A stretch of 64,000 bases of DNA from a virus, in IMG/VR virus record IMGVR_UViG_3300016476_001169, positions 1 through 64,000 of that record; one strand, given 5' to 3'. The position numbers and the translations under genes were made by a program. Shown here one piece after another: positions 49,617-54,372 of this stretch (positions are counted from its first letter, which is position 1; each line of letters begins with the position of its first letter). The notes under the pieces were generated by a model. It ran no database searches. It was not told the origin of the DNA and saw only the letters and a list, made by a program, of their open reading frames with translations.

Positions 49617-50024
49617 TTAAAGAGCTGGCTCTTCTTCTGATTCGATGATTTCTGGAGCCTCGATAGGAGTTGAAGAACCTACAACACTAACATAGTGTGG
49701 CTCTGTCTCTTCAATATTAAGGCTGGTTGCGCCATCAAATCCATACTGTGCAACAATCTCCTTGAAGCGATCTTGGAAATTAGTATTGGAATTTGCCAAT
49801 TCTGTTTCAATAGCATCAAGCTGCTCTTGTGCTTGAGCCTTCTGGCTATTGTAGTTTCTTGTGATCTCTTCATACTGGGCTTCGAGATTCTTAATAAAAT
49901 TATAAGCCTGATAACCCTGTGACTGTAAGAAAGTCTGTTGTGCTTGCATGTTGCGAAGTTCGCCATACTCCTCTGGAGTAATGGCTGGTCTTTCGACCTC
50001 AGTGGTACCTAATGATTCGTCCAT
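49617..50024 (-). CDS. coiled-coil hypothetical protein
   Basis: 135 aa; AAGGA SD. Confidence 0.7.
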   Translation of the reverse strand: MDESLGTTEVERPAITPEEYGELRNMQAQQTFLQSQGYQAYNFIKNLEAQYEEITRNYNSQKAQAQEQLDAIETELANSNTNFQDRFKEIVAQYGFDGATSLNIEETEPHYVSVVGSSTPIEAPEIIESEEEPAL

Positions 50025-50126
50025 GTTTTTTCCTTTTGTGATACTTAAGTAATTACTAGTGCTCTACAGCACACACAATTAATTATACACAAAATTATGG
50101 TTCTTGGCAACCAAAATAGATATTGT

Positions 50127-50366: not shown

Positions 50367-50401
50367 AAAAGGCCCCTTGAAAATAAATTCAAGAGGCCTT
50401 T
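50367..50401 (-). terminator. terminator of the ncRNA candidate
   Basis: AAAGGCCTCTTGAA-tttatt-TTCAAGGGGCCTTTT; the one non-canonical pair is a U-G wobble only on the minus strand. Confidence 0.75.
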
Positions 50402-50408
50402 CTTATAA

Positions 50409-50503
50409 CACTTGCTTCGTTGCAGTGAGTATTTGAGCCACAGCCTCATTGCTATAGCTGATAATCCGCTGTTCGACCTTCGCCCACTAAACTTAAGCAA
50501 GTG
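50409..50503 (-). ncRNA. structured ncRNA candidate with raiA-motif-like outer stems
   Basis: 95-nt irregular hairpin (CACUUGCUU/AAGCAAGUG, GUU/AAC, AGUGGG/CUCACU, GGUC/GGCU, ACAGC/GCUGU) in an ORF-free gap between a promoter and a terminator. Confidence 0.65.
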
Positions 50504-50588
50504 AAATCGCGCAGAACATTAAATTTATCTACTTTAAAAGCGGGAACATTACTACATTATGCTATACTTATAGTAGAAACAATAATTT

Positions 50589-50614
50589 TATTATAGAAAT
50601 AAAATAAAAATCCT
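50589..50614 (-). promoter_or_regulatory. putative phage late promoter (AGG-N18-TAATA) for the ncRNA
   Basis: Minus strand gaAGGatttttattttatttctaTAATAaa, immediately after the nrdA terminator. Confidence 0.5.
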
Positions 50615-50644: not shown

Positions 50645-53095
50645 CTATGAACCGCAAGCCTCGCAGTCAGGATTATCAAGTGAACAGACTGCACTATTGA
50701 ACTCATCTGGATTAAATTCCTTGATAGGCTCTGGCTTCTCAACTCTTTCAACCTTGTCAAGTGATTGCATACCAGAAGTATCAATTCCGAGGCCCTTAAT
50801 TGCAGCAGCCTTTGGCTTGGTTCTGAGGTAATACATACCTGTCTTCAATCCAATCTTCCATCCATAAAAGTGTGCAGAAGAAAGCTTAGACATAGTTGGT
50901 TCTGCCATAAACATATTCAATGATTGAGATTGATCAATGAAATAGTTTCTATCTCTAGCCATGTCAAGGATGTTTTTACCCTTCATCTCCCATACAGTCT
51001 TGTAAACTTCACGAATGTCTGCTGGAATCTCTTCAATGTTTTGAACTGAGCCATTGTCAATGATAAGTTTCATTCTGATGTTATCAGTCCAAAGACCATT
51101 ATTGACCAAGTCTTCTACAAGATGCTTATTGACAATAGCATATTCACCACTAAGGGTATTTCTCTTGTAAAGATTTGCAGTGAATGGTTCAAAACATTCA
51201 TTGTTACCAAGGATTTGTGCAGTAGAAGCAGTTGGCATTGGTGCAACTAACAAAGAGTTTCTTAAACCAACACTCTTGATTTCTTCCTTAAGGGCGTTAA
51301 AGTCCCAAAGGCCTGACAAATCATTTTCATTCAATCCCCAAAGATCATACTGTAATAGACCCTGCGATGCAGGAGATCCAGTGAATGTTTCATAGGGGCC
51401 ATGAATCTTAGCTAAATCCTTAGAAGCAGTAAGTGCTGCAAAGTAAATAGTTTCAAAGATATCCTTGTTCAACTTCTTTGCTTCATCTGATTCAAATGGA
51501 AGACCCATAAGCGCAAATGTATCAGCAAGTCCTTGAACCCCAAGTCCAATTGGGCGATGTCGGAAATTAGACTTCTTTGTTTCAGGAGTAGGATAGAAGT
51601 TAATATCAATCACCTGATTAAGATTTACAGTTGCTTGGTATGTTACTTCATACAATCTCTGGAAATCAAACTTGCGGAGCTTTTTATCTTTCTCTCTAAC
51701 TTTGCCTGATGGAATTACAACATACTTTGGAAGAGCAATCGAGGCCAAGTTACAAACAGCTGTTTCATCCTTGTCTGTATACTCCAAAATTTCTGTACAG
51801 AGGTTTGAAGACTTAATTGTACCAAGGTTCTTCTGATTGCTCTTATAATTTGCAGCATCCTTGTAAAGCATGTAGGGGGTACCAGTTTCTACTTGACTGT
51901 CAAGTACCTTCTCCCAAAGTTCACGAGCCTTAATAGTCTTGAGAGCCTTGCCCTCTGCTTCATACTTTTCAAATAGTTCTGTGAAAGCTTTGCTCTCAGG
52001 ACTATCATAAGCATCTATAAGGCCAGGAACTTCATTTGGAGAGAATAAGCTCCAGTTTCCGTCTTCTTCTACTCTCTTCATGAAAAGGTCTGGAATCCAA
52101 AGGGCTAAGAATAAGTCTCTAGCACGAAGTTCTTCCTTGCCATGATTCTTGCGAAGATCAAGAAAATCAAATACATCTGCATGCCATGGTTCGAGATAAA
52201 CAGCGATGGAGCCCTTGCGCTTTCCACCACCCTGATCAACGTATCTTGCAGTCTCATTGAATACACGCAACATAGGAACGATGCCATTAGATGTACCATT
52301 GGTCCCCTTAATGTATGAACCCTTCGCGCGAATTTTATGAATGTTGATGCCAATACCACCAGCATTTTGTGAAATAGCTGCACAGTCTGCAAGAGACTTA
52401 TAGATTCCTGGGATAGAATCATCATCTACATCAATCAAGAAACAAGAAGAAAGCTGTGGGCGCTTTGTACCTGCATTAAACAATGTAGGAGTCGCATGAG
52501 TAAACAAACCTTGCGAAAGCATGTCATAGGTCTTTTGGACCATTTCAAGGTTGTCTCCCCAAATACCAACAGATACTCTCATGTACATGTGCTGAGGTGT
52601 TTCAGATGGCTTACCCTTCATTTTTAAAAGATAAGATTTCTCCAGAGTCTTGTATCCAAAGTAATCAAAATTAAAGTCACGATCATGAACAATCATAGCA
52701 TTTAATTCTGCACTGTGCTTTTCAATTGATGCATAGGTAGAATCAGAAATCAAACCAGCCTTTTCACCAGTCTTAGGATTAATGTATTCATACAAACTCT
52801 TAGCAACAACTGAAAATTCTTTAGGCACATCCTTATAAAGAGATGTAATTGCAATTCTTGCAGCAAGCTTCGCATAATCTGGATGTGTAGTAATCATAGA
52901 TGCTGCTGTTTCGGCACTTAACTGATCCAATTCAGCACTGGAAACACCATCATACAAACCTGAAATTACCTTCTTGGCAACTTCAAAATAGTCAACATAA
53001 TCTTCATTCAAGCCATAAGTCTGCTTTCTAATTCTAGAAGAAATCTTATCAAACTTAACTTGCTCTACTGTGCCATTTCTCTTTACTACATTCAT
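50645..53095 (-). CDS. nrdA: ribonucleotide reductase class Ia alpha subunit with ATP cone
   Basis: VVKRNG ATP cone, [39 protein letters not shown] and C-terminal CEACGS. Confidence 0.97.
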
Positions 53096-54055: not shown

Positions 54056-54249
54056 TTACGTTTCTTTCTTAGGTATTTTGAATCTTATAATTTTTACGGT
54101 AAGTTGAATAATACAACTAAAACAACACAATGCTTAACATGATTCAAAAATTTACATAATTTTATTTTATAAATTCTGGCAGCAATAGATGCCGCGTTTC
54201 TCAATAGAATTATGGTGCCAGAAAGAACTTTAAGGCACTTTTAGGCGAT

Positions 54250-54340
54250 AAAAAAAGCCACCACCTAAAATAGCTTAGGTGTGACTAATTAAGGTACTTT
54301 GTAGTACCCTTTGCGCTTTAGAATCAGGTTAACAACAGAC
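54250..54340 (-). ncRNA. short non-coding transcript candidate (hairpin plus terminator)
   Basis: Follows promoter 54345-54372. Contains hairpin AGGGTACT-acaa-AGTACCTT and terminator AGTCACACCTAAG..TTTAGGTGGTGGCTTTTTTT; no ATG-initiated ORF. Confidence 0.4.
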
Positions 54341-54344
54341 TTTA

Positions 54345-54372
54345 TTTTACTAGTTTTGACACCATAGAACCT
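54345..54372 (-). promoter_or_regulatory. putative phage late promoter (AGG-N20-TAAAA)
   Basis: Minus strand acAGGttctatggtgtcaaaactagTAAAAt. Confidence 0.45.

Follow-up and report, generated by a model that had tools for sequence, protein, structure and literature searches.

Directly downstream of nrdA in the IMG/VR virus record IMGVR_UViG_3300016476_001169, a 95-nt irregular hairpin on the minus strand was found to be a real, conserved, selected and strand-specific structured RNA element. The stretch of DNA analysed (the window, 64,000 nt) is the first 64 kb of this 104-kb record, which is estimated to be ~29% complete, pointing to a jumbo phage as its origin; the habitat of the phage is lake/freshwater. 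The hairpin lies in a 401-nt gap after nrdA and is oriented as nrdBA, that is, in the same direction of transcription. It is preceded by a conserved 28-nt box and an AU-rich leader, and followed by a terminator-like hairpin and a small gene for a membrane-protein candidate (Table 1). The RNA motif is uncatalogued and comes from a small jumbo-phage lineage.

A conserved, strand-specific structured RNA

The element had been noticed in a preliminary description made from the DNA letters alone, and the minus-strand sequence quoted there matched the window exactly. The five nested helices described for it all pair (P1, 9 bp; P1b, 3 bp; P2, 6 bp; P3, 4 bp; P4, 5 bp), and its G-U wobbles are indeed specific to the minus strand, as three G-U pairs become A-C mismatches on the plus strand. 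A 103-nt stretch at this site folded at −36.5 kcal/mol on the minus strand (z = −4.45), with none of 200 dinucleotide shuffles folding as well, while the plus strand of the same stretch gave z = −2.47. The strand-specific G-U pairs and the difference in fold score together assign the RNA to the minus strand.

The RNA is conserved in related phages. Among 80 NrdA-encoding IMG/VR loci (58–88% identity), one carried it downstream of nrdA (L011, 81%). A metagenome scan with a loop-and-helix pattern added the near-identical L083 and L084 and the more distant L085, the remaining matches being GC-rich chance matches. The RNA is present in three lineages, represented by four distinct sequences (window, L083/L084, L011 and L085). 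In the hairpin, L083/L084 differ from the window by a single C-to-U change, which converts a G-C pair into a G-U pair. Common to the three lineages is a gene order in which nrdA is followed by the RNA, a hairpin, a small membrane open reading frame (ORF; 69–75 amino acids), a 135-amino-acid acidic protein and a convergent gene of ~240 amino acids. Between the window and L084, 94 of the 95 hairpin nucleotides and 31 of the 31 leader nucleotides are identical; nucleotide identity in the flanks is 91% for the nrdA 3' end, 82% for the membrane ORF and 87% for the 135-amino-acid gene, and protein identity is 98% (NrdA), 69% (membrane ORF) and 90% (135-amino-acid protein). The RNA is thus more strongly conserved than the protein genes that surround it.

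Across the three lineages, the RNA has a compact, near-invariant core, GnGrG-CGAA-GGUy-GA-rCAGC ... GCUGU-GGCy-CAAAUA-CUC. All P3 and P4 cells in the core alignment (100%) pair, every substitution being a G-C/G-U or A-U/G-U switch. The outer arm of L085 is different: its P1 is an unrelated 10-bp sequence that still pairs, and its P1b is another helix of 4–5 bp. In a hand-made structural alignment of 29 pairs, 107 of 110 cells are canonical, with double (compensatory) changes in nine pairs and one-sided, pairing-preserving changes in six, and RNAalifold returned the same five helices. The apical loop (20–23 nt) varies among lineages, and the whole hairpin measures 92–107 nt. A covariance model of the core, R1, scored 90.6 bits for the window, 74.3 bits for L085 and 70.9 bits for L011. 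Searches with R1 found one copy per phage record, including a single copy in the 104-kb record, and no copy in ten related phage records, three of which are 92–100% complete.

We considered whether the conservation could have another origin. A protein-coding origin was rejected, since the conserved 3' half lies in different reading frames in the window and in L011. The element might also act at the DNA level or be a chance palindrome, with no RNA function at all, in line with homologues that fold no better than shuffles. Against this, 125 of 126 nucleotides are conserved compared with a background of ~88%, the G-U pairs are strand-specific and a helix has been replaced with its pairing kept. 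This is the least probable of all the explanations weighed here.

No known family accounted for the RNA. None of the 4227 Rfam families gave a match (gathering score or E≤10). GenBank phages searched by blastn gave none either, and pattern scans of IMG/VR returned only the L011 contig and one chance match in a coding region (L103). Loop-based patterns run over 185,579 bacterial and archaeal genomes retrieved six chance matches with non-pairing helices and no copy of the RNA. A relation to Y RNA and Ro60 was rejected, as the record has no TROVE domain and no Y_RNA or YrlA match. The kink-turn (Kt-7, GGCGAAGA), the sarcin-ricin loop, SRP domain IV, the T-loop and the hairpin ribozyme were also set aside, by by-eye comparison only; each shares a few letters with the core, and its pairing or a key residue fails to fit. 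Two GC-rich metagenome contigs without long ORFs (L088, 5442–5519; L089, 1094–1171) carry CGAA-GGCU-GA-GCAGC ... GCUGC-GGUU-CAAAAC with pairing flanks. This look-alike (R1, 26.6 bits) was rejected as a homologue and is probably due to chance, because the search pattern itself had pre-selected it and its fold is no better than that of shuffles (z −0.38).

The resemblance to the raiA motif

The preliminary description had taken the element for a miniaturised raiA-motif RNA (RF03072; ModT of Clostridioides difficile). We found no support for such a kinship. The Rfam raiA model (gathering score 101.3 bits), run in local mode for partial matches, gave no match at E≤10 in either the 401-nt gap or the whole 104-kb record. 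The raiA termini given in that description were accurate when compared with C. acetobutylicum raiA, whose 5' end is UUAAGUUAG-GU-UUG-UGG-UUGAAA-GUCGA and whose 3' end is GUGUGGGGUCAAAGA-CCA-GGU-CAA-CUAACUUA (supplement of PMC12286853), and published primers agree (PMC11706538).

With these ends, the hypothesis that the phage RNA is a degenerate derivative or decoy of raiA could be weighed in detail. It would have kept remnants of P1c, J1(GAA), P4 and the 3' linker and lost P3 and the pseudoknots. Both RNAs have a long closing arm, built of a 9-bp outer helix, a 2-nt 5' bulge, a 3-bp helix and a 2–3-nt 3' bulge, with further short inner helices; in both, the inner helix is followed by GAA, the A-rich UGUGGnnUCAAAnAC (UCAAAnA) precedes the closing strand, and a terminator hairpin stands behind. 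The similarity of the window copy to the C. acetobutylicum raiA ends was beaten by only ~0.3% of shuffles (p ~0.003). In raiA, the GAA joins an A of the 3' linker in a kink that resembles a tetraloop and lies at the junction after P1c (PMC12968392), and the invariant CGAA opposite CAAAUA of the phage RNA is compatible in sequence with such a GAA(A) fold and could form a raiA-like kink.

The features that define raiA are nevertheless missing from the phage RNA. The raiA RNA is ~200 nt long, and its core, comprising P3a-P3b, P4, PK1 and PK2, is retained even in the 113-nt minimal natural form; its P1a/P1b/P1c arm carries GU and GGU bulges and a G-G-C triple conserved to more than 97% (PMC12968392). 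Inside P4 of the phage RNA there are just 20–23 variable nucleotides, with no P3 hairpin and no pseudoknot partners, and therefore no space for the pseudoknotted core. At the places of the raiA GU and GGU bulges, the window has AA and GC (plus U), L011 has UC and G, and L085 has quite different loops. The partners of the shared words also pair differently, the raiA GUCGA being the 5' strand of the local P3a hairpin and the phage GGUC pairing with the distal GGCU.

The similarity to the raiA ends was not significant in L011 (p 0.60) or L085 (p 0.27), and that of the window rests on the outer, non-conserved part of the phage RNA, whose geometry varies among the phage sequences. True homology should occupy conserved positions and should not disappear in homologues, so homology to raiA is disfavoured. 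Moreover, raiA belongs to cells, and only to those of Bacillota and Actinomycetota, whereas the closest cultured relatives of the phage NrdA are in phages of Flavobacteriia (52–57% identity). Descent from raiA is accordingly very improbable, and we conclude that the resemblance is a coincidence in one lineage, apart perhaps from a small shared GAA/A-rich junction motif. A striking by-eye likeness to a famous orphan RNA thus failed against the homologues of the element itself.

Transcription of the unit and possible roles of the RNA

The 28-nt box occurs once in the window, where the chance expectation is 0. Its 5' half resembles an extended −10 element (TGGCATAAT in L083 and L084, TGGCATAAG in L085), and relatives that lack the RNA have a similar −10 element, GGCATAAT, at the same position, driving their next gene. 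From this sequence we infer that the box may act as a promoter, as the transcript's 5' end, or both. The promoter motif placed at 50589–50614 by the preliminary description was not borne out by a sigma-70 scan, which called no full sigma-70 promoter in the gap, and the conserved box is nearer to the RNA. The leader between the box and the hairpin has another sequence in the deeper lineages, with lengths ranging from 13 to 31 nt.

Two further features of the box were noted. An ATG 6–7 nt after its CATAAT hexamer opens a mini-ORF of 6–9 codons, MF(T/P)LL..., which reads MFPLLK* in the window (50529–50549, minus strand), MFTLLK* in L083, MFTLLDKHY* in L011 (6517–6546) and MFTLLS* in L085 (295–315). 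It could encode a leaderless leader peptide or could merely be conserved RNA or DNA sequence; two of three variable box positions are third positions of codons, a non-significant pattern, and a habit of leaderless mRNAs was not evident in the window. The box also contains CGCUUUUA (50534–50542, minus strand), which is kept in three of the four sequences and matches seven of the eight positions of lambda boxA (CGCUCUUA). Such boxA-like motifs are not enriched in the window (three matches against 2.3 expected).

Downstream, the terminator reported after the RNA proved to be a 15-bp hairpin with an A-run before it and a U-run behind it; a strict terminator scan missed it because the U-run pairs into the stem. 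A terminator-like hairpin stands at the same place in all three lineages, with unrelated sequences (z −5.7, −4.2 and −4.8). Just behind it, as the preliminary description had said, comes a membrane-protein gene, a small hydrophobic ORF that begins 12 nt after the hairpin, too close for a separate promoter to fit in between. Its start was assigned to the second ATG (50354) instead of 50366, since in a relative the frame of the first is interrupted by a stop codon. A Shine-Dalgarno (SD)-like GGGA lies 6 nt upstream of this start, and the SD is not sequestered.

The reading that we tentatively favour is a discrete, protein-binding small RNA that would end at the terminator-like hairpin, with leak-through feeding the membrane gene. 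The box, the short AU-rich leader and the 92–107-nt irregular hairpin, in this order, would form an accessory and lineage-restricted unit for a non-coding RNA, carried by a freshwater jumbo phage and co-directional with nrdBA. Its functional part would be the near-invariant centre, namely P2, the asymmetric CGAA/CAAAUA loop, the G-U-rich 4-bp P3, the GA bulge and the 5-bp P4, while the outer helices would need only to pair and the apical 20–23 nt would be free to vary between lineages. Transcription, supplied by the box as the RNA's own promoter and/or by read-through from nrdBA, would most likely stop at the adjacent terminator-like hairpin, yielding a discrete and stable RNA of ~130–185 nt. 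This RNA may serve as a rigid recognition platform for a phage or host protein, or for the polymerase. A platform for a protein, not an antisense RNA or a metabolite switch, is suggested because the conservation lies in internal loops and their closing pairs, with no long single-stranded seed and no conserved alternative fold. Leak-through at the terminator would be the sole source of transcription for the promoter-less small membrane-protein gene. The transcript ends, the binding of a protein and any effect in trans are what we infer from this arrangement.

Several observations weigh against this explanation. The minimum-free-energy fold of the window retains P1, P1b and P2, and two window-specific local hairpins replace P3 and P4 in it; the five-helix model lies 9 kcal/mol above this thermodynamic optimum and is preferred only because the homologues share it. 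Thermodynamic support is strong for the window only: taken alone, the homologues do not outdo their shuffles (z −0.47 and −1.56) and are outscored by their own antisense strands. The structure guided the manual fitting of the full-length alignment, and three independent lineages are too few for the covariation to become statistically significant. No candidate for a protein that binds the RNA was identified. Finally, the downstream start codon lies 12–25 nt behind the hairpin in every lineage, which is the classical layout of a cis-acting leader and differs from that of an independent gene for a small RNA.

The last point leads to an alternative in which the RNA would be a cis-acting antitermination or attenuation leader, comparable to lambda nut or HK022 put, that gates the promoter-less membrane gene. 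In this scheme, the emerging hairpin would capture a phage or host factor, or RNA polymerase itself, perhaps with the help of the boxA-like CGCUUUUA, and thereby allow read-through. In all three lineages, a box, a leader, a structured RNA and a strong hairpin are followed within 12–25 nt by a gene that has an SD and no room for a promoter; a stable hairpin that does not switch could work, like processive antitermination elements, without overlapping the terminator; and the conserved leader region carries the boxA-like octamer. Like this element, lambda nut boxA-boxB and HK022 putL/putR are nascent structured RNAs located between a promoter and the first terminator, without an alternative fold. 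However, a boxA-like 8-mer with one mismatch has a ~1–2% chance of occurring in such a box, was noticed after many ideas had been tried and is not enriched. Moreover, boxB is ~15 nt long and put consists of two stem-loops, neither of which resembles this single hairpin of 92–107 nt; the phage element shares no sequence similarity with nut or put, and there is only one copy in 104 kb. As the next gene is served by its own promoter, antitermination would also control just ~230 coding nucleotides, and no N-like protein was identified, although no search aimed at an N protein was made.

On balance, both this gating role and the read-through step proposed for it are possible but somewhat unlikely, and the discrete-small-RNA and cis-acting-leader readings remain close. 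It is doubtful that the hairpin and the boxA-like leader represent a new class of processive antitermination in jumbo phages, a structurally unrelated analogue of nut and put. If antitermination were true, polymerase would pass the terminator-like hairpin and in this way set when a fast-evolving small membrane protein is expressed.

The RNA may also be part of the 3' untranslated region (UTR) of the nrdBA transcript. The hairpin directly after the nrdA stop codon in the window is preceded by a U-run and followed by an A-run, and it is not shaped like an intrinsic terminator in either direction; as it has no canonical terminator U-tail, nrdBA transcripts may run on into the RNA unit. At the same position, L011 has no hairpin and L085 has a terminator-like one. 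In the window and L011, the first terminator-shaped structure after nrdA is consequently the one behind the RNA. Under an explanation built on these facts, the element would be a stabiliser or processing site of the nrdBA mRNA (for example one cut by RNase III or RNase E), or would give rise to a small RNA derived from the 3' UTR, instead of being a gene driven by its own promoter. In its favour, where relatives lack the RNA, a canonical terminator stands immediately behind nrdA, and no full sigma-70 promoter was detected in the gap. On the other side, the terminator-like site of L085 is followed by a 270-nt spacer before the unit, the unit of L083 is undisturbed by a homing-endonuclease-like gene that splits it from nrdA, and the internal loops and the upstream box are conserved in their sequence to a degree that a stabiliser would not need. 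We therefore consider a purely 3'-UTR role distinctly unlikely; if the RNA were only a 3'-end stabiliser, it would be an ordinary element.

The preliminary description had also pointed to a competing helix, GCAAUGAG/CUCACUGC, which would leave an attenuator reading open. This helix exists, with seven of eight pairs formed. Counterparts are present in the three lineages, yet they were no better than chance (p 0.04, 0.33 and 0.22), and the minimum-free-energy folds of the full leader differ between lineages. No complementarity was found between the apical loop and the downstream ORF, and no conserved, mutually exclusive antiterminator/terminator pairing was found.

These results bear on a further possibility, that the internal-loop core is an aptamer for an ion or small molecule and uses the terminator to control the membrane protein, possibly a channel. 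The conserved core is of aptamer size and immediately precedes a terminator-like hairpin and a gene for a membrane protein, and rod-like aptamers with a single internal loop are known, such as the NMT1 and nhaA-I classes. The phage RNA shares with the NMT1/xanthine and nhaA-I aptamers the single hairpin, the conserved asymmetric internal loop and the position before a membrane-protein gene and a terminator. It differs from them in having no Rfam match, no overlap with an expression platform and very stable closing helices. P1 and P1b are long and stable (12–16 bp together) and do not overlap the terminator-like hairpin, and for this reason a metabolite riboswitch with a terminator platform is disfavoured; the free SD, the lineage-dependent outer geometry and the lack of exclusive pairing likewise speak against it. 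Such a riboswitch is improbable, more so than the 3'-UTR role.

Returning to the tentatively favoured discrete RNA, its nearest counterparts would be small RNAs with intrinsic terminators, including those derived from 3' UTRs, which fall in the same size class, end in a hairpin with a U-run, lie at operon ends and may have an internal promoter. The phage RNA differs from them in having no conserved single-stranded seed and in the next gene lying 12–25 nt behind its terminator. To our knowledge, catalogues cover the structured RNAs of phages poorly, and jumbo phages have contributed very few. The position of this one fits either a stable small RNA or a control of read-through into a rapidly evolving membrane protein. 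Phage biology would gain a new RNA-based control device if this RNA proved to bind a protein of the host or the phage, or to modify RNA polymerase.

Neighbouring genes and other features of the region

Table 1. Coordinates of the RNA unit and its neighbours in the window
Feature	Position	Strand	Remarks
nrdA (class Ia ribonucleotide reductase alpha)	50645-53095	minus	RNA gap directly downstream
UUCG-loop hairpin directly 3' of nrdA stop codon	50618-50643	minus	-19.3 kcal/mol, z -3.3
Conserved 28-nt box	50535-50562	minus	GCATAAkGTnnnAATGTTnnCnCTTTTA; alignment of all lineages
AU-rich leader between box and hairpin	50504-50534	minus	31/31 identical to L084
Irregular hairpin, 95 nt	50409-50503	minus	sequence, homologues and consensus fold
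P1, 5' strand	50495-50503	minus	
P1b, 5' strand	50490-50492	minus	
P2, 5' strand	50483-50488	minus	
CGAA loop	50479-50482	minus	
P3, 5' strand	50475-50478	minus	
GA bulge	50473-50474	minus	
P4, 5' strand	50468-50472	minus	
Apical 23 nt	50445-50467	minus	
P4, 3' strand	50440-50444	minus	
P3, 3' strand	50436-50439	minus	
CAAAUA loop	50430-50435	minus	
P2, 3' strand	50424-50429	minus	
P1b, 3' strand	50419-50421	minus	
P1, 3' strand	50409-50417	minus	
Conserved core (P2, CGAA/CAAAUA loop, P3, GA bulge, P4)	50424-50488	minus	basis of covariance model R1
Terminator-like hairpin, 15 bp	50367-50402	minus	-23.5 kcal/mol, z -5.7
Small hydrophobic ORF, two-transmembrane-like, 75 amino acids	50127-50354	minus	counted from second ATG
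135-amino-acid acidic, coiled-coil-like protein	49617-50024	minus	always accompanies RNA unit

The membrane ORF diverges fast. At 69% amino acid identity to L084, where NrdA has 98% and the RNA 99%, and at only 14–20% to L011 and L085, it could be under diversifying selection or weak constraint. It gave no solid match to Pfam or PHROG, and the neighbouring proteins had no informative family or atlas match. In IMG/VR, the 135-amino-acid protein was found only on the contig of L011, indicating that the block from the RNA to this gene is lineage-specific. Its gene in the window is preceded by a near-consensus sigma-70 promoter (TTGCCA-17-TATAAT, 11/12, at 50082–50110 on the minus strand), which suggests a host with classical −35/−10 promoters, even though the nearest NrdA relatives are in phages of Flavobacteriia.

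In L083 (1–900), the homing-endonuclease-like gene between nrdA and the intact RNA unit encodes zinc-finger and HNH-like motifs, and its product resembles ORFs located after nrdA in L018 and L028. A scan of the window for tRNA and tmRNA genes returned none. Upstream of nrdB, a hairpin with a U7 tail was seen at 54174–54372 on the minus strand, with no similarity to the RNA after nrdA.

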